From contig JBIKVS010000003.1 in the NCBI GenBank assembly GCA_044356725.1, forward strand, positions 4,735-68,734: DNA of 64,000 nucleotides. The letters are read 5' to 3'. The DNA comes from Minisyncoccia bacterium. Its GTDB lineage: Bacteria > Patescibacteriota > Minisyncoccia > SW-4-49-11. The notes under the pieces are model-generated. The model saw only the letters and a list, made by a program, of their open reading frames with translations. It was not told where the DNA came from and did not search any database. Both the position numbers and the translations under genes were made by a program. Positions 2,833-49,334 of this stretch are shown in pieces; position 1 is the first letter of the stretch; every line of letters begins with the position of its first letter.

Positions 2833-4264
2833 ATCTTATATTATCTATAGCTTGAGCTAAAGTTAGTAGTTTTTGTTCTTGAAAATGATTACTCATTAAT
2901 TGGAATCCTATTGGAAGTCCTGCATTAGATAAAGTAGGCACTGAAATACCTGGTATTCCTGCTAAGTTAGTAGCTACTGTGAAGATATCTTCAAGATACA
3001 TAGAAACTGGGTCATTGATTTTCTCTCCAATATTAAAGGCCGTATGTGGACTAGTTGGAGTAATAATAGCATCTACTTCTTTGAAGACATTGACAAAATC
3101 TTGTCTAATCATATTCTGAACTTGTTTAGCCTTACCATAATATGACGAGTAATATCCACTAGATAAAACATAAGTTCCCAACATAATTCTTCTTAAAGGC
3201 TCATTCCCAAATCCTTTAGCCCTACTAGCTCGATATACTTCTTGTAAATCTTGAGAATTTTGTAATTCAGATAATCCATATCTAATCCCATCAAAACGGG
3301 CTAAGTTAGTACTAACTTCAGCTGGCATAATAATATAATAGGTAGGAACTGCATATTCTGTATGAGGTAAACTCACTTCTACAAATTCTACTCCTAAAGT
3401 CTTATAAGTTTGTATAACTTCATCAATCGCTTTTCTGACATTCTCATCAATACCATCTATAAAATATTCTTTTGGAATACCAACTCTCATACCCTTAACA
3501 TTAGATTCCCTAATTTTATCAATATCCAAAAGTTGACTTGTCTCTAACTTAGCAGAGGTAGCATCCATATCATCCTTACCTTCTATTGCTTGTAGGATAT
3601 AAGCTGTATCAATGACTCTATGAGCAAAATGTCCAATTTGGTCTAAAGAAGAGGCCATTGCAATTAAACCAGATCTAGAAACTCTTCCATAAGTAGGTTT
3701 TAGACCGACTACTCCTGTAAGTGAAGCTGGCTGCCTAATTGAACCCCCTGTATCAGATCCAATTGAAATTACAGCCATATCCCCAGACACACTGGCAGCA
3801 GAACCTCCTGAGGAGCCTCCTGGAACTCTATTTGTATCAGCTGGATTACGAGTAGCTCCAAAGGCAGAGTTCTCAGTAGATGCCCCCATAGCAAATTCAT
3901 CTAAATTAGTTTTACCTATAAAGATTACACCTGCTTCTTTTAATTTAGTAATAACAGTAGCATCGTAAGTAGCTGTATAATCCTCTAACATTCTAGAGGA
4001 AGCGGTTGCTTTATATCCTTCAATTAGAATTGCATCTTTGACTGAAATTGGAATGCCTTCTAATAAACCTAATTTTTCTCCACGAGCTAATTTGGAATCA
4101 ATAGTTTCAGCCTGTTTTAAGGATTCTTCTCCAAAAACTTCAGTATAAGAATTGATTTCTTTATCTTTAGATTGAATAGTAGCCAGTATGTCTTCTACTA
4201 CTTTTGTGACGGTAGTATTGGATTCTATATAAGACTTATGGAGTTGTTCTATAGATGGTAGCAT
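2810..4264 (-). CDS. gatA: Glutamyl-tRNA(Gln) amidotransferase subunit A
   Basis: Amidase signature GGSSGGSAA...GSDTGGSIRQPA; 484 aa; lies directly downstream of gatC. Confidence 0.9.
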   Translation of the reverse strand: MLPSIEQLHKSYIESNTTVTKVVEDILATIQSKDKEINSYTEVFGEESLKQAETIDSKLARGEKLGLLEGIPISVKDAILIEGYKATASSRMLEDYTATYDATVITKLKEAGVIFIGKTNLDEFAMGASTENSAFGATRNPADTNRVPGGSSGGSAASVSGDMAVISIGSDTGGSIRQPASLTGVVGLKPTYGRVSRSGLIAMASSLDQIGHFAHRVIDTAYILQAIEGKDDMDATSAKLETSQLLDIDKIRESNVKGMRVGIPKEYFIDGIDENVRKAIDEVIQTYKTLGVEFVEVSLPHTEYAVPTYYIIMPAEVSTNLARFDGIRYGLSELQNSQDLQEVYRASRAKGFGNEPLRRIMLGTYVLSSGYYSSYYGKAKQVQNMIRQDFVNVFKEVDAIITPTSPHTAFNIGEKINDPVSMYLEDIFTVATNLAGIPGISVPTLSNAGLPIGFQLMSNHFQEQKLLTLAQAIDNIRYDKFDNQ

Positions 4265-9216: not shown

Positions 9217-9669
9217 TTACAAAGATATTTTCTTGAAAGACTTAATTTGAATATTTTCACCCAATACTCCAATTTTGCTCTTTAATAATTCTGCAATTGT
9301 AAGATTAGAATCTTTAATATAGCTAGAATCTAATATATCCTGAATTGTTGCATCTTCTGCAATCATAGCTGTAATATGCAATGCTATGTTTTGAGCTAAT
9401 TCTCTAAAATCATCATTACGAGCAACAAAGTCAGTCTCACAAGCTAAGGCAACTAAAGCAGCTGTCTTTCCATTATGTACATAAGTACCAATAAATCCCT
9501 CACCTGTTTCTCTATCAGCTTTTTTCTCAGCTTTTTCAGCATATCTAGATTGTAATAATTCTTTCGCTGCTTCAAAGTCTCCAGATGATTCTTCCAAAGC
9601 TTTTTTGGCATCCATCATCCCAGCACCTGTTATTTGTCTTAACTTAGCAACGTCTTGAGCAGTAATCAT
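9217..9669 (-). CDS. tsf: Elongation factor Ts (short form)
   Basis: N-terminal UBA-like EF-Ts signature ITAQDVAKLRQITGAGMMDAKKAL; downstream of rpsB. 150 aa is short for EF-Ts. Confidence 0.8.
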   Translation of the reverse strand: MITAQDVAKLRQITGAGMMDAKKALEESSGDFEAAKELLQSRYAEKAEKKADRETGEGFIGTYVHNGKTAALVALACETDFVARNDDFRELAQNIALHITAMIAEDATIQDILDSSYIKDSNLTIAELLKSKIGVLGENIQIKSFKKISL

Positions 9670-9674
9670 AATTG

Positions 9675-10412
9675 TTATTCTTTATTATTAGATTTATTGT
9701 CTGTAGCTAGAGCGACTCTTTTAGATTTTGCTTCTGTAATCGTTTGAGCTACTAGACCATAAATATATTGGATTGAACTAATAGCATCATCATTAGCAGG
9801 AATTACATAATTGACTAGTTCAGGATTAGCATTAGTATCGGCTAAAGCAATAACTGGAATATTCAAATCTCTAGCTTCCTTGATAGCCAAAGAATCTTTC
9901 ATTATATCTTGTACAAATACCGCTCCAGGCAATCCTCTTAAGTCTTTAACCCCTGCAAAAATCTTATTCCCTTTTTCTACTTTGTCTGAGAAAACTTTTC
10001 TTTCTTTCTTAGTATAAGCTTTTAACTGATTAGCTTCTAACTTTTCTTCCAATACAACTAATTGTTTCACTCTCTTATTGATAGCTTTGAAATTGGTAAA
10101 TATTCCCCCTACCCATCTTCTAACCATATATGGCATACCTGTTTCATCGGCAATACTTCTGACAATAGGAATAGCCTGCTTTTTGGTAGATACAAATAAA
10201 ATATCTTTTCCTGAAGCTACAGTTTCAGAAATAAAGTCAAGAGCAGTTTCTAACTTCTCTTTAGTAGTATTAAGATCTATGATATGGATAGAGTTTTTAC
10301 TTCCATAAATATAGTCTTTCATTTTTGGATGCCATTTGGATGTATGATGTCCAAAATGTACACCTGCTTTTGCCATATCTTCAAGAGAAATTGTGGGGCG
10401 TGTATTTACCAT
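9675..10412 (-). CDS. rpsB: 30S ribosomal protein S2
   Basis: Begins MVNTRPTISLEDMAKAGVHFGHHTSKWHPKM, a typical S2 N-terminus; sits in the rpsB-tsf arrangement. Confidence 0.9.
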   Translation of the reverse strand: MVNTRPTISLEDMAKAGVHFGHHTSKWHPKMKDYIYGSKNSIHIIDLNTTKEKLETALDFISETVASGKDILFVSTKKQAIPIVRSIADETGMPYMVRRWVGGIFTNFKAINKRVKQLVVLEEKLEANQLKAYTKKERKVFSDKVEKGNKIFAGVKDLRGLPGAVFVQDIMKDSLAIKEARDLNIPVIALADTNANPELVNYVIPANDDAISSIQYIYGLVAQTITEAKSKRVALATDNKSNNKE

Positions 10413-10504
10413 AGCTATTGTTAATTATTACTAAGTATATAAATTAAGTATATTATATATTAATTATACTACATTTTATAATATAAATCAAGTGTATGTG
10501 TAGG

Positions 10505-10870
10505 GTAAGAAAATTGTGGATTGGGAGTTGTAAATTATAAATTGTGAATGGTGAGTTATTAATTGGGAGTTGGGCATCTGTCTCCCTTCGGAGGGAGTAC
10601 CCGTAGGGGGAGGGTGGATAATGCTTAAAATACTAAAATAAACTATTGTTTGTATTAATATTAAAATCTATCCACCACCGGCACTTCGTGCCACCTCCTC
10701 CAAAGGGGGACAAAATAGGTACAGGCGACTGGAAGGTCGCCCCTACGAATACAAAACACAATGGAGGGATAAACGTTTACCTCCCGTAGGGATGTCTCCG
10801 CTACCAATATAATGTCGGTGGGGGCGCCAACTCTACGAAATTCATAATTTATCATTCATAATTAAAATTA
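10505..10870. repeat. GC-rich hairpin-dense modular element (family copy 1) with degenerate direct repeats at its 5' end
   Basis: The rpsB-ftsW spacer is unusually long (about 450 bp). It holds direct repeats aattgtgNatNggNgagtt x3 (10512-10580), module A gtctcccttcggagggagtacccgtagggggagggtggata (10580-10620), a long-range complement tatccaccacc (10669-10679), hairpins ggcac-ttc-gtgcc and ggcgac-tggaa-ggtcgcc, and module C ggggcgccaactctacgaaatt + ttcataatttatcattcataatt (10820-10865). Confidence 0.6.
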
Positions 10871-11974
10871 TTTTCTATATTTACTAATATTAGCAATGAT
10901 CCCAAATAGGCCAAGGAATACTATCATCGAGCTACCGCCAGCACTGACCAAAGGTAACGTCACACCTGTTACTGGAGCTAATTGAATTGTAGTAGCTATA
11001 TTAAGAAAAGTTTGGAATGAAATCCATGTCGCACCACCAATAAGTATATATCGACTAAATTCATCAGCTACTTTAGTATGTAGCCATAGAATTCTCCAGA
11101 TAATAAATAAAAATAATATAACCAAAATCAGAGCTCCTATAAATCCTGATTCTTCTGCAAAAACCGCAAAAATAGAATCTGTACTAGCTTCCGGTAAATA
11201 AAAGAATTTTTGCCTACTTTCTCCTAAGCCCACTCCTGTCAAACCACCTGAGCCTACTGCGATTAGATTATTCTCAATTTGAATTTTATCATCAGGAGTG
11301 GCATTTTCTAGGTCAACAAAAGTAAAAAATCTAGCCTTACGAAAATCTGCCCCAGATATAGCTACTATACCTACTATTAAAATTACAGTCATAAATATTG
11401 CTATAAATCTAAATTTTAATTTAGATTGAAATAAAATACTAGCTGAGATAACTAATAAAATAATTCCATTACTAAGACTAGTTTGCCCAAAAATAACTAT
11501 ACCCGCTCCTATACCAATTATAGAACTGGTTAATATCAAAGCTCCAATATTATTAATTTTTTTACCTAACTGAGTTAATAGTGCTGATAAACATAGTATA
11601 ATAGCTAATTTTAATATTTCAGAGGGTTGAATTCTAAATCCAGCAATATCTAGCCATCTAGTAGCTCCTTTCACTGTCACTCCAGATCGTGACACTAAAA
11701 CCATTATATTTAAACCCATTGTTATTATCCAACCGAATATAGCAAATTTTTTAAATAAATTAAATTTAAGATTAGCAAATATAAAAAATATCACAATTCC
11801 AGGTAATACTCCTTTTATTAATTGATTTACTAGCTCATAATACACATCATCATAAAAAGTATTAGAGATGGGTCCACTAGCTGATTGTAGAATAACTAAT
11901 CCAACTAATAATAATAGTCCTGTTGACACTAATAATCCTGAATCTATACCTTTTAATTTTACTTGTTTGTTCAT
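10868..11974 (-). CDS. ftsW: SEDS-family peptidoglycan glycosyltransferase (FtsW-like)
   Basis: Polytopic FtsW/RodA/SpoVE family protein; position directly after murD in the dcw-like order. Confidence 0.75.
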   Translation of the reverse strand: MNKQVKLKGIDSGLLVSTGLLLLVGLVILQSASGPISNTFYDDVYYELVNQLIKGVLPGIVIFFIFANLKFNLFKKFAIFGWIITMGLNIMVLVSRSGVTVKGATRWLDIAGFRIQPSEILKLAIILCLSALLTQLGKKINNIGALILTSSIIGIGAGIVIFGQTSLSNGIILLVISASILFQSKLKFRFIAIFMTVILIVGIVAISGADFRKARFFTFVDLENATPDDKIQIENNLIAVGSGGLTGVGLGESRQKFFYLPEASTDSIFAVFAEESGFIGALILVILFLFIIWRILWLHTKVADEFSRYILIGGATWISFQTFLNIATTIQLAPVTGVTLPLVSAGGSSMIVFLGLFGIIANISKYRK

Positions 11975-18522: not shown

Positions 18523-18620
18523 TTTATTAATATAATATATTGTATTATATTATATTCTAACATATATTCAGAATTTATCTAAGTGTTTGTATCGGATAAT
18601 TATAAATTATATAATTATCT

Positions 18621-18850
18621 GTCCTCCCTTGGGGGAGGTGTCACCGCAGGTGACGGAGGAGGACTGAGCTAAATTCCCCTCTTGAGGGGTGTCAGGCAAA
18701 AGCCTGACGGGGTGGAAAAATAAATTATGAATGATTAATTATAAATTATGAACCGTAGGGGCGCTGACTCTACGAAATTAATGATTCCTAAGCCTGGTAA
18801 AGCATCCTAAATTTCGCGCGGGTGAGTCCAGGAATTTAATCCCCTCAGCG
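18621..18850. repeat. GC-rich hairpin-dense modular element (family copy 2)
   Basis: Module B gtcctcccttgggggaggtgtcaccgcaggtgacggaggaggac (18621-18663) with outer stem gtcctcc/ggaggac and inner hairpin gtcacc-gca-ggtgac. Further hairpins cccctc-ttga-gagggg and gtcaggc-aaaa-gcctgac. Module C aattatgaatgat.../ggggcgctgactctacgaaatt (18725-18778). Confidence 0.6.
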
Positions 18851-20848
18851 AAGAACGCAACGAAAAGTAAGATCACCAGCTGTGAAACTTGGGGTGTTTA
18901 AGGTTGCAAGAGCAAATATTCCTGAATTAGAAGCTGCATTTGCATTACCACCACGTAAAAAGCCAAAGGCAGTGGTACCTGTGACTGTACCTGCCTGGTA
19001 TTGCCCCATATTCTGACTACTATTCCAACTAGTATTACTTGGTCTAGTTAAATCATAGCTTAAAGTGCCGAAATTAGTTATTGCTGTCCATTGCTGCCAA
19101 AAGGTACCAGAACTGTTATTGGGTTTATCTTGTCCTAATATAGTATCACTTGTCCATTCCCAGGAATTTCCACTTAAGTCCCATATTACTTCTCCATTAC
19201 TAAGGGTATGAGTTCTTCTCTGTCCACTTGGACTAGTATTACCTGTTCCAGAGTATCCATCATTATCATCTGTACTTGCTGACAATAAAAGAGCAGGAGA
19301 GTTATCGGTATGTCCGGACCACAAGCCTCCACTGCCTACTGTTCCTCCTGTCCAGTTTACTCCTTGCGCTTCTATGTTACGAGCTATGGTCATCCATTCT
19401 CTATTATTAATTAAACTTCCTCCTGCTAAGTTACACGCTGTTATAGCATTAGTCTGATTTAGGGAGCCTAGTGGTGGCCCTGCTGCTTGTGTGGTTGCTG
19501 CTACTGTTGATGATCCGGTCTTTGCTTCATATTTCATTACACAAAAGTCTCTAGTACCATATAAACTACTTCCAGGTACTCGGATATAGCCTGTTGGACA
19601 TTGTAGATACGACCAACCTGAAGCAGTACAAACTTGCAATCCCCCATTATTATATCTTAAAGTTCCTACATTAGAGCTAGTACAATTAGTAGTATCATTT
19701 CCAACTCTAATCCCACCATTTACATCTAATCTAGCTTGTGGGGTTGTGGTCCCGATACCTATATTCCCATTACCTAATATTCTCATCCTCTCATTAGCTC
19801 CATTTGCTCCAGTGAAGAATCTTATATCTTGAGCGGTAGCATTGGTAGTAGCTAAGACTAATGGCTGCGCACTTGTTGTACCTAACCTACTACCACTTGT
19901 CCCGTTCCAAGCATCTATAGTTGCATTCCCTGTTAAACTCCAGCCTGAACCTACGCTACTAAGACTTACCTGACTAAACTGTCCACTACTATTAGCTAAT
20001 AAAACTCTATCGAAACCACTTGGAGTTGTAGTATTAGCCACTCCTCCTAAGAGTGATGAGGTGACGGCTGTATTAGAAATTGTAAATCTATTAACACCAG
20101 ATGTACTAAATGTATATTGCTGTCCAACACTCCATAAAGTATTAAAACTTAATCCAAAATAAGTTTGAATAAATGAATTAGCAGAATTATCAGTAAATAA
20201 AGATAGTATATTAGTATTATCTGTATTTCTAATATTAAATGCACCTGCATTATTAGATGTATTTCTGATTGAAAGAACGGGATTATTACCCAAAAAGACT
20301 CCTTCTCCTCCTGAGTTTAGAGAGAAAGAATTGGTACTAGTACCACCATTTGCTACTAATCTCATAGAATTTATAGCTGACATTGCTGAGCCTATTCTCT
20401 TACGAGGGCTGAATATCTCTTCATAAGATCCATTCCCATCCGCATCTAATTGTAATTCTACCCATAAAGAATCATCATTGATAGAGCTAAGAGTTGTATT
20501 TTGACTTCCTAATAAAATTTCAAACCTACCATCAACAATAGATAATAGTGGCGATACTATTCCTGAGTAAGTTGTACTTCCATCTCTTATCTCTTCATAT
20601 ATAGATGTACCCCCAGAGACTACATTGTACAAACTAAACTTAACTCTATATCCTCCATCTGCTAACACTGTCCCATCATTTTTCACAATGGTCCCCGAAT
20701 ACGGTATCTGAGCATTAATACCAGTCCCTGCTAAGACTTTATTATAATTAGATATGATTAAAAATATTATGAATAAGAAAGCAATAACCCATCTTAGATA
20801 TGACTTATATTGTATATTAGCAAGTTTGTAAGATTTAAACACATTCAT
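18845..20848 (-). CDS. Secreted/signal-anchored protein with C-terminal FGE-sulfatase-like (C-type-lectin-fold) domain
   Basis: N-terminal signal anchor; C-terminal roughly 250 aa carry CPTGYIRVPGSSLY..DFCVMKYEAK, GNSWEWTSD, FLRGG and a terminal FRCVLR, resembling the FGE-sulfatase/SUMF1 fold. Paralogous to the C-terminus of the 36614-37978 ORF. Confidence 0.55.
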   Translation of the reverse strand: MNVFKSYKLANIQYKSYLRWVIAFLFIIFLIISNYNKVLAGTGINAQIPYSGTIVKNDGTVLADGGYRVKFSLYNVVSGGTSIYEEIRDGSTTYSGIVSPLLSIVDGRFEILLGSQNTTLSSINDDSLWVELQLDADGNGSYEEIFSPRKRIGSAMSAINSMRLVANGGTSTNSFSLNSGGEGVFLGNNPVLSIRNTSNNAGAFNIRNTDNTNILSLFTDNSANSFIQTYFGLSFNTLWSVGQQYTFSTSGVNRFTISNTAVTSSLLGGVANTTTPSGFDRVLLANSSGQFSQVSLSSVGSGWSLTGNATIDAWNGTSGSRLGTTSAQPLVLATTNATAQDIRFFTGANGANERMRILGNGNIGIGTTTPQARLDVNGGIRVGNDTTNCTSSNVGTLRYNNGGLQVCTASGWSYLQCPTGYIRVPGSSLYGTRDFCVMKYEAKTGSSTVAATTQAAGPPLGSLNQTNAITACNLAGGSLINNREWMTIARNIEAQGVNWTGGTVGSGGLWSGHTDNSPALLLSASTDDNDGYSGTGNTSPSGQRRTHTLSNGEVIWDLSGNSWEWTSDTILGQDKPNNSSGTFWQQWTAITNFGTLSYDLTRPSNTSWNSSQNMGQYQAGTVTGTTAFGFLRGGNANAASNSGIFALATLNTPSFTAGDLTFRCVLR

Positions 20849-24447: not shown

Positions 24448-24590
24448 AGACGGAAGAAAGGTTATACTTATTTACTATATTATATTGTACCTAAAATATA
24501 GTAAATAATCAATATATTGTATGAGATGATGAAATCGTAGACATTGAGTCAAGGAATGAAAGTAATCCATAGAGTATCAGACAATTAACT

Positions 24591-24846
24591 GTCCTCCCTT
24601 CTACCTACGGCAGACAGGTGGGAGAGGTGGCCCCGTAAATGGGTCGGGAAAACTGGAGTTTTCCTGTGGAGGAAGGCAACGAGGTCAAAGACCGAGTGTT
24701 GGAAACCGTGGCTTTCCAAGGAACAAATCCCATTTGCGAAGACGGAGGAGGACTTCAGGCGGACGTAAGCTCCCACCTATGGTCTATACTTCATAATTCA
24801 ATCTCTATCCACCCTCCCCCTTCCGGTACTCCCTCCTAAGGGAGAC
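24591..24846. repeat. GC-rich hairpin-dense modular element (family copy 3, expanded)
   Basis: Module B 5' half gtcctccctt (24591) and 3' half gacggaggaggact (24741-24757) are separated by a GC-rich insert of about 140 nt. Module A is in inverse orientation: atccaccctcccccttccggtactccctcctaagggagac (24808-24846). The AT motif ttcataattca lies adjacent. The ORFs predicted here on both strands are judged spurious. Confidence 0.6.
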
Positions 24847-24901
24847 AAAATACATCTCAATATTAAAGTATTGTCTACGATGTTTCTAATCTTTTTAAAT
24901 G

Positions 24902-28590: not shown

Positions 28591-30246
28591 CTATTTCAAT
28601 TTATCAATTACCACAGCATCCTCACCATGCTGTATTATAAAACTAAACCACATTTCAAAATAGAATGGTATTTCATTATTTTTTGAGTCAGTAATTGTTA
28701 AAATATCATCTGTTCTAGTTAAATTGATATTTTTTCCATTTACATTAAAATTATAATTAGTATTTTCTTTAATATCTAAATAAGGAATACCTATAAATTT
28801 ATCTTCATCTCGTAGAACTACAAAGATTGTTTTTGATGGGAAACGTAAATCCAAGTTACTTGGTGAAAATATAAATTCTTCACTATCCTCATATCCAGAG
28901 TAAGGATTTCTAGTATAATCTCTTTGATATCCTGTGTTTTCACTTAGTACTAGAGCTTTTGGATATTGCCTTTTTACTTCAGATATTGTCATCAATTGCA
29001 TTGGGATGAGATTTAATTGAGTATCTAAAGAATCACCGGCTAAAATTTTACCTGTACTCTGCTGCCATAATGATTCATTCTCTCTATCAAACATTATCAT
29101 ATTACTCTCTAATAGGAATCCACTCACTCCAAAGGTCAATGTTTTACCTAATACATTTCTATCATAAACTATAGCACTACCACATAGTGGACAGAATGTC
29201 ACAGCTACTGGAGTTCCGTTAATAGTATCATTAACTATCTCATGCCAATTCAATATATTATAGGGATATACTTTTACCTCATCTCCATCTTTAAGTACTA
29301 TAGCTTGAATTTTATCATTATATTGTACTGTGTCTATTGATACAAATTTTGGATTATCTATTGAGGGGATTCCATCCTTCCCTGGTCCTCCAGATATCGC
29401 TCGTTTTAAATTGACATCTGAATTAGCCCATTGTGTATTTGGGAAGGATTTGCTTAAATCCTGAGGGATATTATCTAAATTAAGATTAGATTTATTAGGT
29501 TGATTATCTTCTTTAGGCGAAAACCTTTCAATTAATGATTCTTCAAATTGAATAGTTGCTCCATATCCAGAATCTAATATAGCTGACTCAATTTTTTTAT
29601 CATACCCAGTAAGTATTGCCAAACCTACAAGAATAATTAATACTCCAAATATTTTTTTTGCTCCATTAGCGGCATCCATATGATTGGTAATTTTATTTAT
29701 AAACTTACCACCAAAATATGCAATTATTAAGAGCGAACAAGCTAGCCCAAATGTAAATCCTAATAAATATATGAATCCAACAAAAAATCCTACTGGAAGA
29801 ATAGTAGCTATTATAAATAGATATGTTGGGGAACATGTAGTAAATACAGGCCCTAATGCAAGACCAATAAGTACGTCTCCAGCATAATTTTTTTTCTTAT
29901 ATCCTTTTCCTATAGCTTTATTCCCTATAATGCTAATTTTTTGGATAAATGGAATATTTGTCCAAAAAGAAGGAAATACTATACCTATTCCAACTAATAA
30001 TATAATTCCTCCTGAAAGTAAACTCCAAAAATACTGAGGGATATCGATAAGGAGGGTACTTGCTTTAAGTAGGAGTGTAAATAAAACAATTGATATAGAT
30101 AGAGATCCTATTACAACCACTGATTTTTTGGATATATGATTATGTCCGTTTTCAGAAGATCCAATTACAATTGGTAAAAGAGGTAGAATACAAGGAGCTA
30201 AAACAGTAAGCACACCCGCAAGAATTGATACTAGTAAGAAAATCAT
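28591..30246 (-). CDS. Fusion protein: DsbD/CcdA-like thiol-disulfide transporter TM domain plus C-terminal DUF3179 domain
   Basis: N-terminal LAPCILPLLP CcdA/DsbD motif with six TM helices; C-terminal KDGIPSIDNPKF...GTPVAVTFCPLCGSAIVYDR, typical of DUF3179. Confidence 0.6.
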   Translation of the reverse strand: MIFLLVSILAGVLTVLAPCILPLLPIVIGSSENGHNHISKKSVVVIGSLSISIVLFTLLLKASTLLIDIPQYFWSLLSGGIILLVGIGIVFPSFWTNIPFIQKISIIGNKAIGKGYKKKNYAGDVLIGLALGPVFTTCSPTYLFIIATILPVGFFVGFIYLLGFTFGLACSLLIIAYFGGKFINKITNHMDAANGAKKIFGVLIILVGLAILTGYDKKIESAILDSGYGATIQFEESLIERFSPKEDNQPNKSNLNLDNIPQDLSKSFPNTQWANSDVNLKRAISGGPGKDGIPSIDNPKFVSIDTVQYNDKIQAIVLKDGDEVKVYPYNILNWHEIVNDTINGTPVAVTFCPLCGSAIVYDRNVLGKTLTFGVSGFLLESNMIMFDRENESLWQQSTGKILAGDSLDTQLNLIPMQLMTISEVKRQYPKALVLSENTGYQRDYTRNPYSGYEDSEEFIFSPSNLDLRFPSKTIFVVLRDEDKFIGIPYLDIKENTNYNFNVNGKNINLTRTDDILTITDSKNNEIPFYFEMWFSFIIQHGEDAVVIDKLK

Positions 30247-30251
30247 ATAAT

Positions 30252-30740
30252 TTAGTTTATTTTTGAAAGTATACTTTCAAGATTTGAGCCTCCACTCCAT
30301 TTTTGAATTAGATTCCCATCTTTATCTACCTGCACAAGTGTGTGTTGACTTGTAACCCCATACTTCTTCTTTAATTCTGTCTCTTTATCATAATCAGCTT
30401 TCAGAATAGTGACATCTGATGGGATAGAATCAATATTTTTTTCTATATCATTATTAAGCGCTCTACATGAAGGACACCAAGATGCTTGAAAGAAGATTAC
30501 AGCTTTTCCATTCTCTGCCAAAGAAATCTTGTCTTCACTATATATCTGATATGATGATTGTTCGTCCCCAGATTTAATATCTGCATTCTTATTTAAAGAC
30601 TGTGATTCATTTAAATCATTAGTAATATTGTTTTTAACTTCATTCGAATTATCTGGTTCAACTTTATTATCTCTACTAAGTACAAAATACGATGCTAATA
30701 CTATAATAATTAATACAATAATCCATAGATTCTTCTTCAT
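30252..30740 (-). CDS. Membrane-anchored thioredoxin-like thiol-disulfide oxidoreductase (TlpA/ResA-like)
   Basis: WCPSC active site in a thioredoxin fold with an N-terminal signal anchor. Confidence 0.7.
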   Translation of the reverse strand: MKKNLWIIVLIIIVLASYFVLSRDNKVEPDNSNEVKNNITNDLNESQSLNKNADIKSGDEQSSYQIYSEDKISLAENGKAVIFFQASWCPSCRALNNDIEKNIDSIPSDVTILKADYDKETELKKKYGVTSQHTLVQVDKDGNLIQKWSGGSNLESILSKIN

Positions 30741-30750
30741 ATGTTTTTAG

Positions 30751-31032
30751 TTATTCTGCTAATATATTTAATACTTTTAATAATTTTTCTGATAAGGCAT
30801 TATTTTCTTTGAGGTAGCAAATAATCTGCCCCATTCTATGAGCTTTTACAAGTCCCTTGGAAGTAAGATAAGCTAGTTGATGTGATGCCAGTGATTGAGA
30901 AATTTGTACAGTTTGAGATATTTCATTAACACATAGATCTCTATTAGAACTATATATCAGCTTCAAAATCTTATATCTATTTAAATTAGACAATACTCTC
31001 ATCAATACTATTTTATTACTTTCTTCGATCAT
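30751..31032 (-). CDS. ArsR/SmtB-family transcriptional regulator
   Basis: 93 aa with a winged-HTH region LCVNEISQTVQISQSLASHQLAYLTSKGLV; first gene of the redox operon. Confidence 0.7.
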   Translation of the reverse strand: MIEESNKIVLMRVLSNLNRYKILKLIYSSNRDLCVNEISQTVQISQSLASHQLAYLTSKGLVKAHRMGQIICYLKENNALSEKLLKVLNILAE

Positions 31033-31122
31033 ATTAAATTTAAATTTAAACTTATAATTATATTACTTTACAAGACTTGGAAAAACTATTGGAATTATAA
31101 AAATAACGATAAATGTACTTAT

Positions 31123-31150
31123 ATATTAATATATGCGCATATATTAATAT
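31123..31150. promoter_or_regulatory. 28-bp perfect palindrome centred on GCGC, candidate ArsR-family operator
   Basis: atatattaatatatgcgcatatattaatat is perfectly self-complementary and lies about 90-120 bp upstream of the arsR start on the minus strand. Confidence 0.35.
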
Positions 31151-31374
31151 TATATACCGAAGTTTAAATATATGCAATAGCTTATAATATAAAATACTAA
31201 AGGACATTTCTTAAAATAGGAAAGCATGATTTACGTAATTTATTTTTGCTTTTTATATATTGTCTAATTAATCAATCATTCTTAGAGCATACTTAATTGC
31301 AAAATAGCTACCTTCCTCAAAATAAGCTCCCTAAAGAAATTCTTTCAATTTAGGAAACTATAATCTTATTATTA

Positions 31375-31550
31375 CACTATTTCCTCCTTTCATTTTTTAT
31401 ACTACTTTTTCCTATTCCTAATTCTATCCCTATCTCTCTATAATTATATCCCATCCCTATATATGTCTCTATCTGTATCCTATCTTTATACTTTAGTCTC
31501 TTATACTTCCTCATATCCTTATTATTTACTTATTCCTTTCTTATTATATA
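31375..31550. repeat. G-depleted polypyrimidine/CT-rich low-complexity tract
   Basis: Roughly 175 nt on the plus strand with only about 4 G, built from tatcYY/tctc-like units; purine-rich on the minus strand. Confidence 0.6.
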
Positions 31551-31748
31551 CTGTTGCATTAGATCTCTGAAGAAAAGAAATATATAAATTAAAATAAAGA
31601 CTAATGGGCCATATATACCAAATGATTGAATAAAGTTTTGTGTTTTTTGAATATCTAATAATTTGGAATTTTGAGTATATATAGTTATACCTATTAATAT
31701 AATTATACTTAAAGGAATAATACTCTTTTTAAATGAGATATGTTTCAT
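31530..31748 (-). CDS. Small hypothetical membrane protein (doubtful)
   Basis: 72-aa ORF with two hydrophobic segments; no other support. Confidence 0.2.
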   Translation of the reverse strand: MKHISFKKSIIPLSIIILIGITIYTQNSKLLDIQKTQNFIQSFGIYGPLVFILIYIFLFFRDLMQQYIIRKE

Positions 31749-31845
31749 ATATAATAAGTATCTATAACAGAATATATAAATAATTTAGAGTATAAATTTT
31801 CTAATATGAGATAATAATAATAACATATCATGTAAAAAACCAATA

Positions 31846-34650: not shown

Positions 34651-36552
34651 TTAATCCAGAGTACCGTTGGAGTTATATTTAGCTATAAAGGAATCTGTTC
34701 CTCCTATACTAGTTAGCTCTTGAATAATGCCACCTTGTCCAAAATTAGATAAACCTTGGAAATAACCTACTACTAAAACATTACCATCTATATCCACATC
34801 AACGCCTCTACCAGAGTCTGCACCTGATCCACCAGCTCTCCTAGCCCAGGCTAATGTTCCATTGGCATTATATTTTGCTATAAAGGCATCTTGTGCTCCT
34901 GCACTAACTAATGATGTCTGATTAGATTCACCTTGACCAAAAGTTGCCGTACCCTCAAAGTATCCAGTTATTATGGAACTTCCATCTGTATTTATGGCAA
35001 TATCAATAGCTAAATCTCCTCCATTTCCTCCAGCTTTCTTAGCCCAAGCTAATGTTCCGTCTGAATTATATTTAGCTACATATATGTCTGCTTGTACTCC
35101 TGTACTGACTAATGTTGTTTCATTTGACTCACCCTGTCCAAAGACTGCTGTCCCCCAGAAAAATCCAGTTACTATACTACTCCCATCACTATGCATACCT
35201 ATATCTCTAGCCCAGTTTATATCTGCTCCTATTGACAAGACTTTTTTTGCCCATATAATACTTCCATCTGAATTGTATTTAGCTATATAGCTATTATAAG
35301 TTCCTGAGGCAGTTAAAATTGTCTGATTAGGGTCACCCTCACCGAAAATAACAGAATTAGTGCTAGCAAACTGTCCTGCAACAACAAATGTTCCATCTAT
35401 ATTATTACTAATTCCATATCCCCATTCCCAAGAATTACCACCTATTCTTTTAGACCAGGCTAATGTACCATTAGAATTATATTTAGCTATAAAGGTATCT
35501 GTAGCACCTCCACTAACAAGAGTAGTAGCATTGGCTTCTCCCTGTCCAAAGACTGCTGTCCCCTCAAAGTATCCAGTTACCAAAGCACTGCCATCAGAAT
35601 TAGCAGCTAATCCGAAGCCATATTCTCTTTCACCAGTACCACCTGCTCTCTTAGCCCAAACTAAATTACCATCCGTAGCATATTTTGCAACAAATATATC
35701 TCTACTTCCTGCACTGACTAGAGTTGTGGCATTAGGTTCTCCTTGTCCAAAGACTGCCGTACCTGTAAATGAACCTGTTACAATACTTGTCCCATCTGCA
35801 TATCCTATAATATAGTTACCCCCATAATCTTCACTAGTACCACCTGCTCTTTTGGCCCATGCCAAAGTTCCACTGGGATTATATTTAGCTATAAATATAT
35901 CTCTACTCCCTGCACTGACTAAAGTTGTAGCATTAGGTTCTCCTTGTCCAAGGATAGTAGTACCTTCAAATGAACCTGTAACTAAAACACTACCATCACT
36001 TAACTTAGAGACCCCTCCACTTTTATCCAAACCACCAGATCCCCCAGCTTGGACTAGAAAAGTTTGAGTTGGAGTTATAGTATTGATAACCAAATCTTGC
36101 TCTAATTCTGCTTTATTAGCTCTGAGACTAATCTGATTATTCGAGTCTTTAGCAATTTCATAACCTGTTTCTCCAACTATTGTATCGGTATCTTTGGGAA
36201 TTTCACTTAAGTATGTAGGGACCAACACTCTTAAATCTATCTTACCATCACAGTATCCTGTACTCGGTAGTGTATCTTCTATAGTAAGATTGCCTGTATC
36301 ACATATCTCTATATATGTATTAGTAGGTATGTTTAAATCTACAAATCCCCTATTAACTGCATTATATTGCTGTAATGCATTATAGATATCATTAATTGAG
36401 ACTTGTCTCTCAAGATTTCTAGATTGTGAGATTTGTCTACTAGGATTTATAGCTACTAGAACAATACTAGATAATATACCTATTACAACTATGGTCAAAA
36501 GTATCTCTAATAATGTAAATCCTTTATTACTTATCTTATTATATTTATTCAT
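34651..36552 (-). CDS. Prepilin-type N-terminal domain fused to SBBP-like beta-propeller repeats (large pilin-like adhesin candidate)
   Basis: Leader MNKYNKISNKG|FTLLEILLTIVVIGILSSIV; the C-terminus has about ten repeats of ...GTAVFGQGE.N.TTLVS.G..D.FIAKYN..G.L.WAK.AGG..., matching the SBBP beta-propeller repeat pattern. Confidence 0.65.
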   Translation of the reverse strand: MNKYNKISNKGFTLLEILLTIVVIGILSSIVLVAINPSRQISQSRNLERQVSINDIYNALQQYNAVNRGFVDLNIPTNTYIEICDTGNLTIEDTLPSTGYCDGKIDLRVLVPTYLSEIPKDTDTIVGETGYEIAKDSNNQISLRANKAELEQDLVINTITPTQTFLVQAGGSGGLDKSGGVSKLSDGSVLVTGSFEGTTILGQGEPNATTLVSAGSRDIFIAKYNPSGTLAWAKRAGGTSEDYGGNYIIGYADGTSIVTGSFTGTAVFGQGEPNATTLVSAGSRDIFVAKYATDGNLVWAKRAGGTGEREYGFGLAANSDGSALVTGYFEGTAVFGQGEANATTLVSGGATDTFIAKYNSNGTLAWSKRIGGNSWEWGYGISNNIDGTFVVAGQFASTNSVIFGEGDPNQTILTASGTYNSYIAKYNSDGSIIWAKKVLSIGADINWARDIGMHSDGSSIVTGFFWGTAVFGQGESNETTLVSTGVQADIYVAKYNSDGTLAWAKKAGGNGGDLAIDIAINTDGSSIITGYFEGTATFGQGESNQTSLVSAGAQDAFIAKYNANGTLAWARRAGGSGADSGRGVDVDIDGNVLVVGYFQGLSNFGQGGIIQELTSIGGTDSFIAKYNSNGTLD

Positions 36553-36613
36553 ATTATTTTATTATTAATATATTTTGTAGTATATAATTCTTTTTTATAA
36601 AATACAATAGATA

Positions 36614-37894
36614 CTATCTAATTACACATCTAAAGCCATGTGTAGGTAAAGAGCATGTAGTATTACAAGGGCCAATTGAGAAAACTCCAGCTCCTTCTTG
36701 AGTCGAATCCCAACCTCCTGACCATGAACCACCTCTCATCCAATTAGAGATCTGAGTTGAGCTACTAGGAGAATGACTTATTAATTGTCCTATATTATTA
36801 GAGCTGTTCCAAGCTATATTGCTAGGTCGATAATAATCATAGTATAATATTCCATTACTGATAATATTATTAAATTCTACTCCAGCCCAACTAATTTGAT
36901 TGTTTGAATAAGGCATATCTTTTTGTTGAATAGTATCTGTAGTCCACTCCCATAGATTACCACTAATATCCCAAATAGTTTCCCCATTACTTAATATATG
37001 TGTTCTTTTTTGCTGCCATCCATTATTAATACTATTCCCTGTATCTTTATATCCCAAATTATCATCTGTGCTAGCTTCTAGAGCTGTATTCGGATTATTA
37101 TCACTATGTCCTCTCCAAATCCCTCCATTACCAATTTCGTTTACTGGAGTTGGGATTGGATTATACCAGTTATTAGATACCGATTCTATATTTCTAGATA
37201 TAGTCATACCTTCTACATTAGTCATTAAACTAGCTCCTGCATTAACACAATAACTTGCAGCCGTTGCTTGATCTATATTAGCTATTGGATACCCAGTAGC
37301 TACACTGGCTATAGTTCTACCATTAGCTGCTGTAGTGGGGGTGGTATTATTTGCTATAGTATTGAAACCAGTATTTGGAGTTGTTAAACCTACAGTTGGA
37401 CTATTGATAGCTACTGCTTTAGCTTCGTATTTCATCACACAAAAGTCTTTGGTTTGATATAGGCTGTTTCCGGGTACTTTTATATAACCTGTTGGACAGC
37501 TGAAGTTTCCTGCTGTATCTGTTGTATTGACATAGACTCTACCATCATTCCCTCTTGCTACCGTATATGTGGTACTACTTGGTATTGCGGATACATATTC
37601 TGGTATTAAACTACTTAGGTTTATACAGTCTGGTGTATTTACTGTATTACTACATACTTTCCTTTGTACTCCATCTAGTCCTGCTGGGTAATTACCTGTA
37701 TCTATCAATCTCTGTTGTAATGCTTTCTCTATTGTATTCTTATCGCTATTTATTGCTGCTTGTCTTGCTTGGTTTATTTGTCTATTTGGATTTATGGCTA
37801 CCAGTACTATTGCCGCTAATATTCCTATTGCTGCTATTACTAATAATATCTCTAGGAGGGTGAAGCCTTTGTTGGCTTTTATATTTCTATTCAT
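36614..37894 (-). CDS. Prepilin-type N-terminal domain fused to an FGE-sulfatase-like (C-type-lectin-fold) domain
   Basis: The ORF track extends to 37978 (TTG start). The likely true start is the ATG at 37892-37894, giving the leader MNRNIKANKG|FTLLEILLVIAAIGILAAIV. C-terminal CPTGYIKVPGNSLYQTKDFCVMKYEAK, GNLWEWTTD, MRGGSW and a terminal HGFRCVIR; paralogous to the C-terminus of 18845-20848. Confidence 0.6.
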   Translation of the reverse strand: MNRNIKANKGFTLLEILLVIAAIGILAAIVLVAINPNRQINQARQAAINSDKNTIEKALQQRLIDTGNYPAGLDGVQRKVCSNTVNTPDCINLSSLIPEYVSAIPSSTTYTVARGNDGRVYVNTTDTAGNFSCPTGYIKVPGNSLYQTKDFCVMKYEAKAVAINSPTVGLTTPNTGFNTIANNTTPTTAANGRTIASVATGYPIANIDQATAASYCVNAGASLMTNVEGMTISRNIESVSNNWYNPIPTPVNEIGNGGIWRGHSDNNPNTALEASTDDNLGYKDTGNSINNGWQQKRTHILSNGETIWDISGNLWEWTTDTIQQKDMPYSNNQISWAGVEFNNIISNGILYYDYYRPSNIAWNSSNNIGQLISHSPSSSTQISNWMRGGSWSGGWDSTQEGAGVFSIGPCNTTCSLPTHGFRCVIR

Positions 37895-38019
37895 ATGTAT
37901 GAGTTTATTATTTATAATTTTATTACAGTCTTTTCTATATCTATTTAACATTATACCTCCCCCCCAGATTTTTGTCAAATTTGGAGTGTGCTGATGTATG
38001 TATAGTTAATATAATAATT

Positions 38020-40874: not shown

Positions 40875-43800
40875 CTATTTTAATCTTAACAAATAAGTTC
40901 CACTCTGGTTATTATAAACCTGAAACCTCCCTCCAACTACTATCTTTCCATCTGATTGGATAGCGATAGTATTGACAGTCTCATTAAATCCTGTACCTAT
41001 CTCAAAACTATTATCTCTACTTCCATTACTATTGAGTCTTATTATTCTATTAGCTGATGCTCCTCCTTGATCTATAATTTCTGTATAATCATATTCTTCA
41101 TTATACTCTAACTCTCCCTGATATAACTCAAACCCTCCTCCTACTACTATCTTTCCATCTGATTGGATAGCGATAGTATTGACAGTCTCATTAAATCCTG
41201 TACCTATCTCAAAACTATCATCTCTACTTCCATCATTATTTAAACGAATTATTCCATTAGCTGAGGATCCTCCTTGATCTATAATTTCTGTATAATCATA
41301 TTCTTCATTATACTCTAACTCTCCCTGATATAGGTTAAAATATCCTCCAACTACTATCTTACCATCTGATTGGATAGCGATAGTATTGACAGTACCATCA
41401 AATCCTGTGCCTATCTCAAAACTATTATCTCTACTTCCATTACTATTGAGTCGGATTATGCTATTAGCTGATGCTCCTTTATAATTGCTAAAGTCTCCTC
41501 CTACTATTATCTTTCCATCACTTTGGATAGCGATAGTATTGACAGTCTCATTAAATCCTGTACCTATCTCAAAACTATCATCTCTACTTCCATCACTATT
41601 TAAACGAATTATTCCATTAGCTGAGGATCCTCCTTGATCTATCATTTCTGTATAATCATATTCTTCATTATACTCTAACTCTCCCTGATATAGGTTAAAA
41701 TATCCTCCAACTACTATCTTACCATCTGATTGGATAGCGATAGTATTGACAGTACCATCAAATCCTGTGCCTATCTCAAAACTATTATCTCTACTTCCAT
41801 TACTATTGAGTCGGATTATGCTATTAGCTGATGCTCCTTTATAATTGCTAAAGTCTCCTCCTACTACTATCTTTCCATCTGATTGGATAGCGATAGTATT
41901 GACAGTACCATCAAATCCTGTGCCTATCTCAAAACTATTATCTCTACTTCCATCACTATTTAAACGAATTATTCCATTAGCTGATTCTCCTTTATAATTG
42001 CTAAAACCTCCTCCTACTATTATCTTTCCATCACTTTGAGTTTTAACTATATCGACATCTGAGTCAAAAGAAATTTTATTGGTGTATTTAATTCTAAGTG
42101 ACAATCCACTATCAAAGTCAGTAGATCTACTACCGTCCAAATTAAATTTTAGAATACTTCCGATAGTAACGTCAATTGCTCCTCCATCAGTATTAAAGTT
42201 AGAAATCCATTCCTCATTTTCAAAATCTATCGTCTGCATATCAATTAATTCTCCATCTGCATTATATACATTATTAACTGTTGTAAACAAAGCTCCTCCT
42301 AGAAAAATAGTGTTATTAACTAATAACATTCTATCCGCGATATTAGGTGTTAATAAACTATTCATATCTAAACTAAAACTTGTATCTCTACTTCCATCAC
42401 TATTTAGTTTTAAAATATTTCCTCCAAAATCTTCAATTTCCCCAGAAAAATTTCTAAATAAGATAAATATAGTACCATCGCTTTGTTCATAAATATCTTG
42501 TATATAAAAGTATGTGTTTATACTTGGTAAAGATATATCTGAATTAAATGATAAATCTTTTTCACCATTGCTTGTTAACCTAATTAATCTATTTACTGAA
42601 TTGTTTTGATATGTTCTAAAATCTCCTCCTACCAATATCTTGCCATCAGTTTGTAACAATATACTGTTGACTACACCTCCACCAAACCAATCACCAAACC
42701 CTGACCCCATATCAAAGCTGCTATCTCTACTACCATCACTATTTAATCGAATTATTTTATTTGCTCCCAAGCCATTATAACTAGTAAAATTTCCTCCTAT
42801 CAATATCTTGCCATCTGACTGAACAACCAATTTATACACAGACCTATCTATACCTGAAAAACCCGTGCCTATATTAAAGCTTGTATCTCTACTTCCATCA
42901 CTATTTAATCGGATTATTCTATTTGCTCCTACACCATTATAACTAGTAAAATTTCCTCCTACTATTATCTTGCCATCTTCCTGTATGGCTAAAGTATTGA
43001 CAGAATCATCCCCGGCCGTTGTTCCATCCAGACTCCCCCTAAATCCTGTCCCTATATTAAAGCTTGTATCTCTACTTCCATCACTATTAAGTCTAACTAT
43101 TCCATTAGTTGATTCTCCTAGATACTCATTAAAATCTCCTCCTACCAATATCTTTCCATCTGACTGTTCCTTTATATCAAATACACAGCAACTTATGTCA
43201 CCTGAATTAAAACTTTCATCTATATCTCCATTTTGATTAATTCTAAATATATTATTGATATAATCACTATTAATTGTATTTACTAGTATATTACCATCAC
43301 TTTGTAATTCGAAAACAGTAGATTGTATGAGTTCAGATTCTAAAAAATTGTCAATATCAATAATGTACCTATTGGAATCAGAAATTAATTCAAACCCAAA
43401 ATTTCCTGTGTAAAAATCTTTATCTATTATTCCTGTGGCTGTGTTTAAAGGAGGATTTATACCATCATCTACATCATCTGTATCTGGAGGGATAACTGAT
43501 GGATTTGGAGTAGTTGGGATATTAGGTGTAATTGGATTTATAGGTAAATTAGGTACACTAGGAATACTTGGGACATTCGGTATACTTGGTTTATTAGTTA
43601 TACTTGGTAATTCTATTGGCTTATTATTTGTAATAGGTGGTTTATAAACTTCTATTGGAGAATATCTCAAAGGCTGACTTCTTATACCCCTATATTCTCC
43701 CCTTATATTATTAACTATTGTTGCTATACGTTGTTCTCGTTTTTCCTCATTCTCTCTTGTTACTACTGTGCTATTTCTATCATCTACATCTTGATCTCTG

Positions 43801-48970: not shown

Positions 48971-49233
48971 GTTTAGTTAATATTTTTTAAAGTAAGTTTA
49001 TGTTCTCTGAAATATAATACGGTAAATCTCAGTATTTTTTAAATCCAAAAGGACTGAGCTCTGCCTTCTAAAAATCACTACCTACTTTTTACCTCTTAAC
49101 CCATGTTTTCATAGATAAGCCTCGGCTTTTGTCATTGATGATCTGAGCTTATTTTCTACGGCCTTGAGATGTTTATTATATTTATTGTTTTCTCTCATCT
49201 ATTTTGGTGTTTAGATAAAGTTGGAAGATCTTA

Positions 49234-49331
49234 GTCCTCCTCCGTCACCTACGGTGACACCTCCCCCAAGGGAGGACAGTTCTTATCTTGTCTCCATTTG
49301 GAGGGAGTACCCGCAGGGGGAGGGAGGACAG
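49234..49331. repeat. GC-rich hairpin-dense modular element (family copy 4)
   Basis: Module B in reverse orientation, gtcctcctccgtcacctacggtgacacctcccccaagggaggacagtt (49234-49281), is the reverse complement of the 18621-18663 copy with one mismatch. Module A gtctccatttggagggagtacccgcagggggagggaggaca (49290-49330). It sits between convergent genes. Confidence 0.65.
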
Positions 49332-49334
49332 AGC

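Follow-up and report, generated by a model that had tools for sequence, protein, structure and literature searches.

A mosaic island of palindromic repeat modules between ftsW and rpsB in a Minisyncoccia bacterium, and its likeness to REP/BIME elements, yeast mitochondrial GC clusters, and whalefall-1

Among the described systems closest to the element reported here are repetitive extragenic palindromes (REPs), defined as palindromes, one end of which bears a GTAG (or CGTC) tag that stays unpaired (PMC3733652), and the bacterial interspersed mosaic elements (BIMEs) grouped with them. In yeast mitochondria, GC clusters are GC-rich palindromes in AT-rich spacers that undergo fast turnover, cross-species sharing, merging, and shuffling (Wu and Hao 2015, PMC4478555). 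A third system is whalefall-1, a noncoding RNA (ncRNA) motif known only from a marine whale-fall metagenome and rated "certainly RNA" (Weinberg et al. 2010, PMC2864571). Here we analyzed 64,000 nucleotides (the window) of contig JBIKVS010000003.1 from a Minisyncoccia bacterium of the candidate phyla radiation (CPR), and in particular the spacer between ftsW and rpsB. Window positions 10500-10867 are a mosaic island of short palindromic repeat modules, which we designate S10. S10 is dispensable, and whole islands as well as single modules are present or absent at orthologous sites. We consider it likely that S10 is one island of a lineage-specific, noncoding, GC-rich hairpin repeat family in a narrow clade of tiny-genome, AT-rich freshwater Paceibacteria. 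This family is of the REP/BIME and GC-cluster kind, occurring in CPR bacteria and built on whalefall-1-like units.

The window has a GC content of 31.2%, and nearly all of its genes lie on the minus strand. As the original prediction, made from the sequence alone, had stated, the ftsW-rpsB spacer is oversized (10413-10867, 455 bp, compared with 98-101 bp at the same site in close relatives) and holds GC-rich blocks in an AT-rich genome, with at least 60% GC in 40-nt windows at 10563-10625, 10667-10744, and 10789-10828. The three hairpins that it named (ctccc/gggag, ggcac-ttc-gtgcc, and ggcgac-tggaa-ggtcgcc) and the long-range complementarity ggagggtggata...tatccaccacc are likewise legible in S10. 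The S10 region folds much more stably than shuffled sequences, with -130 kcal/mol (z -6.3) on the plus strand and -110 kcal/mol (z -5.7) on the minus strand. Length and high GC content coincide in only three further spacers of the window (18523-18844, 24448-24901, and 48971-49334). The features of the locus are given below, where R1 is the covariance model of a two-hairpin unit and X, A, and M3 to M7 are unit forms and modules, all described further on. The coordinates of S10 may take in up to ~15 nt of the original spacer.

9217-9669, minus strand: tsf
9675-10412, minus strand: rpsB
10463-10491, minus strand: rpsB promoter TTGATT-17-TATAAT, outside the island (promoter scan, 10/12 matches)
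10500-10867, no strand: whole island S10, between the ftsW stop codon and the rpsB promoter (alignment with the empty alleles L050 and L052 and the filled alleles L051 and L053)
10540-10573, plus strand: 5' closing arm, AT/G-rich, of the AATTGTGAAT type (minimum-free-energy fold)
10579-10619, plus strand: two-hairpin unit, subtype A (R1, 49.7 bits, E 1e-13)
10620-10669, no strand: AT-rich 50-nt spacer between the inverted units (sequence)
10670-10712, minus strand: two-hairpin unit, X/M4-like, inverted (R1, 57.2 bits, E 3.5e-16; the nhmmer profiles X and M4 match)
10725-10748, minus strand: module M5, a GTAG-tagged GC palindrome, REP-like (nhmmer M5, E 1.5e-6; GTAG-plus-hairpin scan)
10764-10797, minus strand: hairpin GGAGGGA-TAAACGTTTA-CCTCCC followed by GTAGGG, M7-like (sequence)
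10814-10836, minus strand: GTAG-tagged hairpin GTAGAG-TTGGCG-CCCCCA-CCGAC, adjoining the 3' arm
10827-10863, plus strand: 3' closing arm of the AATTCATAATTTATCATTCATAATT type, pairing with 10540-10573 and found again at 18723-18762
10868-11974, minus strand: FtsW/RodA-family gene (ftsW), stop codon at 10868-10870

In the minimum-free-energy fold, the closing arms of S10 pair over 32 bp with five G-U and no A-C pairs. The subtype A unit has the layout TGTCTCCC-TTCG-GAGGGAG, TA, CCC-GTAG-GGG, GAGGGTGGAT. The tails of the two inverted units face each other and are complementary (GGGTGGATA/TATCCACC), and the arrangement of unit A, spacer, and inverted unit was found together also in the related contigs L051, L030, and L074. 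The M5 module reads TCGTAG-GGGCGACC-TTCCA-GTCGCC, and 26 copies of it were found in a first set of loci and nine in a second. Counterparts of the M7-like hairpin occur in L043, L040, and L053 as CGTAGC(A/G)GAGGGTTTA(C/T)CCCTC, and the hairpin at 10814-10836 has relatives at 18755-18786 (84% identity over 32 nt) and in L133. The motif ATT[AGT]TGAAT is 3.4-fold enriched near islands. When compared with L051, window positions 10517-10575 show the 5' arm of S10 with a 42-nt tandem duplication, which reads caactcccaa + ttaataactcaccattcacaatttataattta + caactcccaa in the ftsW-to-rpsB orientation; slippage or duplication thus also reshapes islands.

The remaining long GC-rich spacers hold three sister islands. 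All six strong R1 units in the window lie within the four GC-rich spacers.

18523-18844, no strand: sister island S18, with unit X at 18620-18664 (plus), M3 at 18671-18716 (plus), and arm plus GTAG modules at 18712-18790
24517-24901, no strand: sister island S24, 385 bp inserted exactly behind the stop codon of Pth
49234-49329, no strand: sister island S49, with unit X at 49234-49278 (minus) and unit A at 49289-49329 (plus), head to head and 10 nt apart
Six strong R1 units: 10579-10619 (plus), 10670-10712 (minus), 18620-18664 (plus), 24807-24847 (minus), 49234-49278 (minus), and 49289-49329 (plus)

Two modules of S10 had been predicted to recur elsewhere, and both do: the unit A at 10579-10619 is copied at 24807-24847 (minus) and 49289-49329 (plus), and the 3' module together with the arms is found again at 18723-18786. 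S24 contains, besides its unit A, a unit X with a nested insert of ~150 nt (24586-24766, plus); folding of this ~180-nt unit with its insert (24580-24770) was not significant (z -0.8). The two units of S49 reach R1 scores of 66.6 (X) and 51.2 bits (A).

The core module of the family is a unit of 41-45 nt composed of two hairpins and a purine-rich tail. Its commonest form, X, reads TGTCCTCCC-TTGG-GGGAGG, TG, a variable hairpin (for example, GTCACC-GTA-GGTGAC), and GGAGGAGGAC. RNAalifold on nhmmer alignments missed the hairpins because the variable hairpin was misaligned, and it was replaced by a hand-specified structure for 25 units, from which the covariance model R1 was built. In 812 kb of related Paceibacteria DNA, R1 identified 147 units, all intergenic and in both orientations, which bears on the question of copy number in related genomes that had been raised for the predicted element. 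In the alignment of these 147 units, 90.9% of the cells are paired, both partners vary in 10 of the 11 base pairs, and compensatory cells number 267. These values were not matched in any of 500 shuffles, and sliding the partner by 1-3 columns left 40-58% of the cells paired. The hairpin structure of the units is thus selected, and compensatory changes preserve the hairpins; covariation, proposed earlier as a check on the element, is present. Across species, hairpin 1 and the tail hardly change in sequence. Hairpin 2 differs in sequence and length, keeps its pairing, and can carry inserts of 15-150 nt. Among non-Watson-Crick pairs, G-U outnumber A-C by 34 to 15, an excess that is modest and comes from an alignment fitted to a model that tolerates G-U; it points to a hairpin that is read on one strand, either as RNA or as single-stranded DNA.

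A census placed these units in a narrow group of organisms. A pattern search that fixes only the ends of unit X (TGTCCTCCCTT-N15-45-GGAGGAGGAC) in a collection of species-representative genomes gave 43 loci, of which ~39 are in ~11 Parcubacteria/Paceibacteria/Minisyncoccia metagenome-assembled genomes, most of them from freshwater; the remaining four lie in high-GC genomes and appear to be chance matches. The window and four different species-representative genomes share one 45-mer without any change. Further recurrent modules, labeled M3 to M7, came from the flanks of the hits, and nhmmer profiles then located 197 modules of seven types in 84 islands within 326 kb, in variable order and orientation. 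Favored adjacencies are M4 followed after 7 nt by X, X followed directly by M6, and M5 followed after 2 nt by M4. In 830 kb of loci that had not been chosen for units, modules occurred only in AT-rich close relatives, some of which had none. A search with the neighboring 667-aa protein returned paralogs of its C-terminal FGE-sulfatase-like domain, and the loci obtained in this way served for the module census only; this domain has hundreds of paralog-like metagenome matches. We also observed that ~58 kb of DNA in L052, L063, L067, and L070, all from sample Ga0207935 (RpsB 93%), contain no repeat modules. If these contigs belong to one genome, they would suggest a nearly repeat-free sister lineage.

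Orthologous sites, fetched via homologs of RpsB and phosphomannomutase (PMM), gave the following spacer lengths.

ftsW-rpsB (S10): 455 bp in the window, 98 bp in L050 (RpsB 96%), 101 bp in L052 (93%), 547 bp in L051 (94%), and 360 bp in L053 (89%, different upstream gene)
Pth-197aa (S24): 454 bp in the window, 69 bp in L133 (PMM 93%), 69 bp in L134 (90%), and 83 bp in L135 (87%)
FGE-like-TPR (S18): 322 bp in the window, 96 bp in L134, 95 bp in L135, and 622 bp in L133

Content differs between the filled alleles. At the S10 site, L051 and the window have the rpsB-proximal half in common and different modules on the ftsW side, and L053 has yet other modules; this allele pattern requires both gains and losses. 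At the S18 site, L133 carries the island of the window with extra nested pieces, including a unit X with an insert of ~150 nt in hairpin 2, as in the window copy at 24586-24766; an insert also interrupts another of its modules. S24 is the cleanest case, a 385-bp insertion with the junctions ...attttgtaa| and |tatattgatt. Comparison of its filled and empty alleles revealed no target-site duplication beyond a possible AA, and its ends have only a subterminal inverted ATCGTAGACA, ~20 nt from each end. An imperfect 9-nt repeat in L051 (ataaacact / acatacact) is ambiguous. Over ~22 kb orthologous to window positions 8.8-30.8 kb, there are six units in the window and 0-1 in L133-L136. An RpsB identical to that of the window is present on 12 contigs from JGI, ENA, and Logan metagenomes, and the spacer sequence is 100% identical in the four that cover it. 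Among the seven contigs shown for identical RpsB, two begin inside the ftsW-rpsB spacer, one of them inside S10, as is expected of a repeat.

A module of ~100-150 nt with three hairpins (GGGGTCGGGGAACGGGAGTTCCCC...GAAGGAAGGCAGCGAGG...TTGGAAACCGTGGGTTTCCAA) is nested inside hairpin 2 of unit X. It is located at window positions 24597-24755, L133 11847-12009 (minus), L016 1093-1196 (minus), L007 4459-4550 (minus), and L021 ~3770-3850 (plus). It also occurs directly downstream of tRNA-Arg(tct) or tRNA-Ala(tgc), where a ~18-nt copy of the tRNA 3' end, beginning in the T-loop, comes after it and resembles the att duplication that a tiny integrated element leaves. A permissive Rfam scan of the tRNA-linked copy in L016 gave nothing credible.

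The modules share many properties with REP/BIME (PMC3733652; PMC2817692): they are extragenic, GC-rich palindromes that are short and present in many copies, close units stand in opposite orientation and allow larger folds, and the units form mosaic clusters. Orientation alternates in S10 (A plus, 50 nt, X minus) and in S49 (X minus, 10 nt, A plus). An unpaired GTAG lies beside the stem in M5 (10725-10748) and in the hairpin at 10814-10836, and CGTAG is 11-fold enriched in islands; a generic scan for GTAG plus hairpin was noisy (28 found compared with 14 in shuffles). Many copies are located just downstream of coding regions, as in REP/BIME. By contrast, a REP is a single palindrome, whereas the main unit here comprises two hairpins and a tail, lacks a terminal tag, and has GTAG, if present, in a loop. 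The host also differs, being a CPR bacterium with 31% GC, and long AT-rich inverted arms close some of the islands.

The original prediction had offered a miniature mobile repeat as one possibility, with decayed fragments of an insertion sequence (IS) or a MITE (miniature inverted-repeat transposable element) as a way in which copies might be explained. The mobile-repeat possibility is supported by a multicopy family with polymorphic islands, and S10 resembles a MITE in being small and noncoding, in its 32-bp terminal inverted pairing, in its insertion polymorphism, and in the assembly breaks that coincide with it. It is not a classic IS-derived MITE, however: S24, the cleanest junction, has no target-site duplication, the ends differ between islands, the islands are modular rather than deletion derivatives of an IS, and no parent IS or transposase was found. 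Behaviorally, the closest analogy is that of yeast mitochondrial GC clusters, which are also GC-rich palindromes in AT-rich intergenic DNA that are gained and lost between close strains. It is an analogy only; the sequences are unrelated, an organelle is compared with a free-standing bacterial genome, and there is no target-site duplication here.

Based on the differences in presence and absence among relatives, we infer that the modules are mobile, selfish, non-autonomous DNA elements that are gained and lost like REP/BIME or GC clusters. As to how they might move, our tentative guess is that a trans-acting nuclease or transposase of the HUH/RAYT kind (RAYT, REP-associated tyrosine transposase) recognizes the hairpins while the DNA is single-stranded and works in a peel-and-paste manner. 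Insertion would occur preferentially beside existing hairpins or into their loops, thereby building nested mosaics. Single-stranded recognition and the targeting of hairpins are suggested by the clean junctions, the nesting in loops, the strand-biased wobble pairs, and the GTAG tags. Alternatively, recombination or gene conversion may operate, as proposed for mitochondrial GC clusters. Once inserted, S10 is probably transcribed as a 3' tail of ftsW, and its hairpins could block exonucleases or read-through before the rpsB promoter, a putative side effect.

Several results weigh against an interpretation as REP- or GC-cluster-like selfish DNA. In 1.28 Mb of genome fragments, tblastn with IS200 TnpA and E. 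coli RAYT (approximate query sequences) gave a best E value of 0.11, and Pfam scans of 20 strain-specific and island-flanking open reading frames (ORFs) identified no transposase. Classic REPs avoid divergent spacers, but the islands do not: 45 islands have tandem, 12 divergent, and eight convergent flanking genes, matching the background of all spacers (197, 35, and 33, respectively). Insertion was never directly observed, and because the rpsB-site pattern needs gains and losses, some of the "empty" sites may be deletions. Functional constraint, rather than recent spread, could lie behind the near-identity of units from different species. Finally, the strong covariation, the G-U excess, and the rating of whalefall-1 as "certainly RNA" fit an RNA function equally well.

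This last point bears on the alternative that each unit represents a gene or domain of a functional, structured RNA belonging to the whalefall-1 class, with copies that are functional rather than selfish; the two hairpins would present the Shine-Dalgarno-like tail, whose binding partner might be a protein, the ribosome, or the 16S 3' end. At the gathering cutoff, Rfam matched only tRNA-Phe in the whole window, and a permissive scan of S10 gave nothing credible. In permissive scans, whalefall-1 (RF01762) was the top match for two independent units, at 24811-24848 (21.4 bits, E 0.0037) and 18619-18664 (18.7 bits, E 0.013), both below the gathering cutoff of 37. The Rfam check suggested at the outset thus returned no known RNA at cutoff apart from the tRNA and a sub-threshold match.

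The likeness to whalefall-1 is architectural. In both, hairpin 1 has a UNGG-type loop and a C/U-rich versus G/A-rich stem, hairpin 2 is variable, and the purine-rich tail resembles a Shine-Dalgarno sequence and ends in GAGGAC; the units, with their tail GGAGGAGGAC or GAGGGTGGAT, agree with the description of the whalefall-1 architecture. The 5' ends match as well (GUGUCC/GUAUCU versus UGUCC/UGUCU). Both occur as two subtypes, which in the whalefall-1 seed alignment read GUAUCUCCCC...AGAGGGAGGAC and GUGUCCCUCC...AGGGUGAGGAC, and as inverted pairs tens of nucleotides apart, with AT-rich flanks and no conserved downstream gene; six seed contigs hold inverted pairs 33-57 nt apart in the layout of S49 and S10. 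There are also differences. Hairpin 2 of whalefall-1 is often capped by CUUG, whereas the units have GUA/CGUAG, GAA, GUCA, GCA, UAUA, or long AT-rich inserts, and the linker is AGAG in whalefall-1 but UG or UA in the units. Whalefall-1 is marine and was described as an ncRNA, whereas the units are polymorphic modular genomic repeats in freshwater Paceibacteria. No unit reached the whalefall-1 cutoff in the window or in 129 kb of module-rich loci with dozens of units. A nhmmer profile of 16 whalefall-1 seeds found nothing in the 1.28 Mb (best E 0.15), and the X, A, M3, and M4 profiles found no whalefall-1 seed. Since the cutoff is not reached by any unit and sequence-only profiles recognize the other family in neither direction, we do not count the units as members of whalefall-1, which is probably a distant relative or an architectural twin.

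A functional RNA would account for the excess of G-U over A-C pairs in the units and for the five G-U and absent A-C pairs of the arms, for the 20 kcal/mol by which the plus strand of S10 folds better than the minus strand, and for the conservation of the hairpin 1 and tail sequences across species. It sits poorly with units that occur in both orientations relative to the neighboring genes, even within one island, with islands that are absent from close relatives, and with scores far below 37 bits. A promoter scan found no promoter-like site on the plus strand upstream of S10, and the modest G-U excess would arise equally from a strand-specific mechanism acting on single-stranded DNA. Overall, we consider a functional RNA of this class unlikely. 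The structured ncRNA envisaged in the original prediction therefore gains covariation and a sub-threshold match to whalefall-1, and has against it the dispensability of the copies and their two orientations.

We hold similarly little expectation for a more unusual possibility, namely, that the units and whalefall-1 are recognition modules of an undescribed, CPR-specific mobilization or RNA system, which copies modules and nests them in hairpin loops and beside tRNA 3' ends without a RAYT-type enzyme, or else abundant decoy RNAs in which Shine-Dalgarno-like and anti-Shine-Dalgarno-like sequences pair. If true, this would constitute a new class of element rather than a variant of REPs.

Where the islands lie relative to genes raises the question of whether the host keeps them as cis-acting transcript punctuation, as terminators, insulators, or stabilizers of 3' ends between operons, at S10 between the mur/ftsW and rpsB-tsf operons. 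No unit is located in a long ORF, and unit orientation relative to the flanking genes is unbiased (14 same/same and 11 opposite/opposite). Sixteen of 45 islands are within 31 nt of the upstream stop codon, and the next start codon is never less than 44 nt away. Such placement, with S10 itself lying between the ftsW stop codon and the rpsB promoter, would suit punctuation, as would hairpins that are stable on either strand and a weak terminator-like site at 10831-10814 (minus strand); REPs have been hypothesized to act in transcription termination and mRNA stabilization (PMC3733652). The same stop-abutting, start-avoiding pattern is expected if selection removes insertions that damage promoters. 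Moreover, close relatives lack any element at the same three junctions, the hairpins are not followed by U-tracts, and islands are not enriched over background between convergent or tandem genes. Module content also differs between strains at a single site, which would be unexpected for a selected terminator. We thus regard retention as punctuation as improbable.

A role of the modules as attC-like cassette sites, or as RNA antitoxins in toxin-antitoxin systems of type III, with the copy near rpsB a stray, is very improbable. Every spacer in the toxin arrays of L020 and L030 (MazF/PemK, Zeta, and Fic) does hold an island, 37-140 nt upstream of each toxin gene, but the majority of islands, among them the four of the window, have housekeeping or pilin-like genes as neighbors. 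Type III antitoxins are tandem direct repeats, which the modules are not; as for cassettes, orientation is variable, no R'/R'' core sites were seen by eye, and no integrase was found. The arrays themselves (L020 1-8000 and L030 1-8000) have MazF/PemK-like toxins in 6 of 10 ORFs scanned, plus Zeta and Fic/DOC, and no antitoxin ORF of at least 70 aa between the toxin genes.

The notion that S10 is a 5' leader of rpsB-tsf, of the autoregulatory type that protein S2 would bind, draws on a long and structured element upstream of rpsB and can be set aside with near certainty, given a sigma-70-type promoter that leaves a ~50-nt leader common to filled and empty alleles, the absence of S10 in relatives with 93-96% identical RpsB, the same modules beside unrelated genes, and the lack of any match to an Rfam leader family (window at gathering cutoff, S10 permissive). 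S10 follows the ftsW stop codon immediately and lies upstream of the rpsB promoter. A flank ...ACACTTGATTT (window 10489-10499), 17 nt, the -10 box, ~60 nt, and ATG are common to all five alleles, filled and empty. The -35 box and its spacing are kept throughout, and the -10 box reads TATAAT in three alleles, with TAGTAT or TATTAT in the remaining two. Because this conserved promoter, which is intact in the empty alleles, sits between S10 and rpsB, S10 lies outside the 5' untranslated region, and its earlier placement in the rpsB 5' region had to be corrected; the cis-regulatory role proposed there is not supported.

Other candidates were rejected. A phage origin of the modules is not supported, because scans of viral contigs with both unit patterns gave no matches. 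On anatomy alone, we rejected CRISPR or TIGR arrays (tandem spacing is not regular), attC sites (orientation varies and core sites were not seen), and retron, omega-RNA, or bridge-RNA genes (no partner gene nearby). Small ORFs inside S10 are not conserved, S10 being absent in relatives.

Further features of the window were noted in passing. An AT-rich gap of 813 bp (31033-31845) contains a 45-aa ORF (MRKYKRLKYKDRIQIETYIGMGYNYREIGIELGIGKSSIKNERRK; 31377-31514, minus strand), which by eye resembles the N-terminal helix-turn-helix of an IS30-type transposase and might be what is left of a decayed IS. In L133-L136, the block 28591-31845 (DsbD/DUF3179, thioredoxin, and ArsR) is absent between MscL and NDK. 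Between groES and the RNase_H_2 gene (34651-37978) are two genes with N-terminal pilin-type methylation motifs, encoding proteins of 633 aa (beta-propeller repeats) and 454 aa (FGE-sulfatase-like), which are not at that position in L134-L136. N_methyl (type IV pilin-like) proteins are numerous in the window, some with an FGE-sulfatase or Laminin_G_3 domain; those with the signal are encoded at 18845-20848, 36614-37978, 46025-47098, 47102-48970, and 49335-50525. The string GTAGTTGGAGG(A/G)... recurs at 40940, 41354, and 41714 (minus), with spacings of 414 and 360 nt, in a 1027-aa ORF (40875-43958), which suggests internal protein repeats.

In conclusion, we report here a family of GC-rich hairpin repeats whose islands, S10 among them, differ between close relatives. 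CPR/Patescibacteria genomes are held to be small and streamlined; here there are four repeat islands in 64 kb, and in relatives one two-hairpin unit per roughly 5-6 kb of DNA sampled. The islands break metagenome assemblies and inflate intergenic spacers beside core genes, and screens based on GC content or covariation could mistake them for riboswitches or leaders. They offer markers at strain level for populations of freshwater Paceibacteria. Should the link to whalefall-1 hold, this motif, an orphan since 2010, would acquire a plausible host group, the genomic behavior of a polymorphic modular repeat, and a testable alternative to "certainly an ncRNA."

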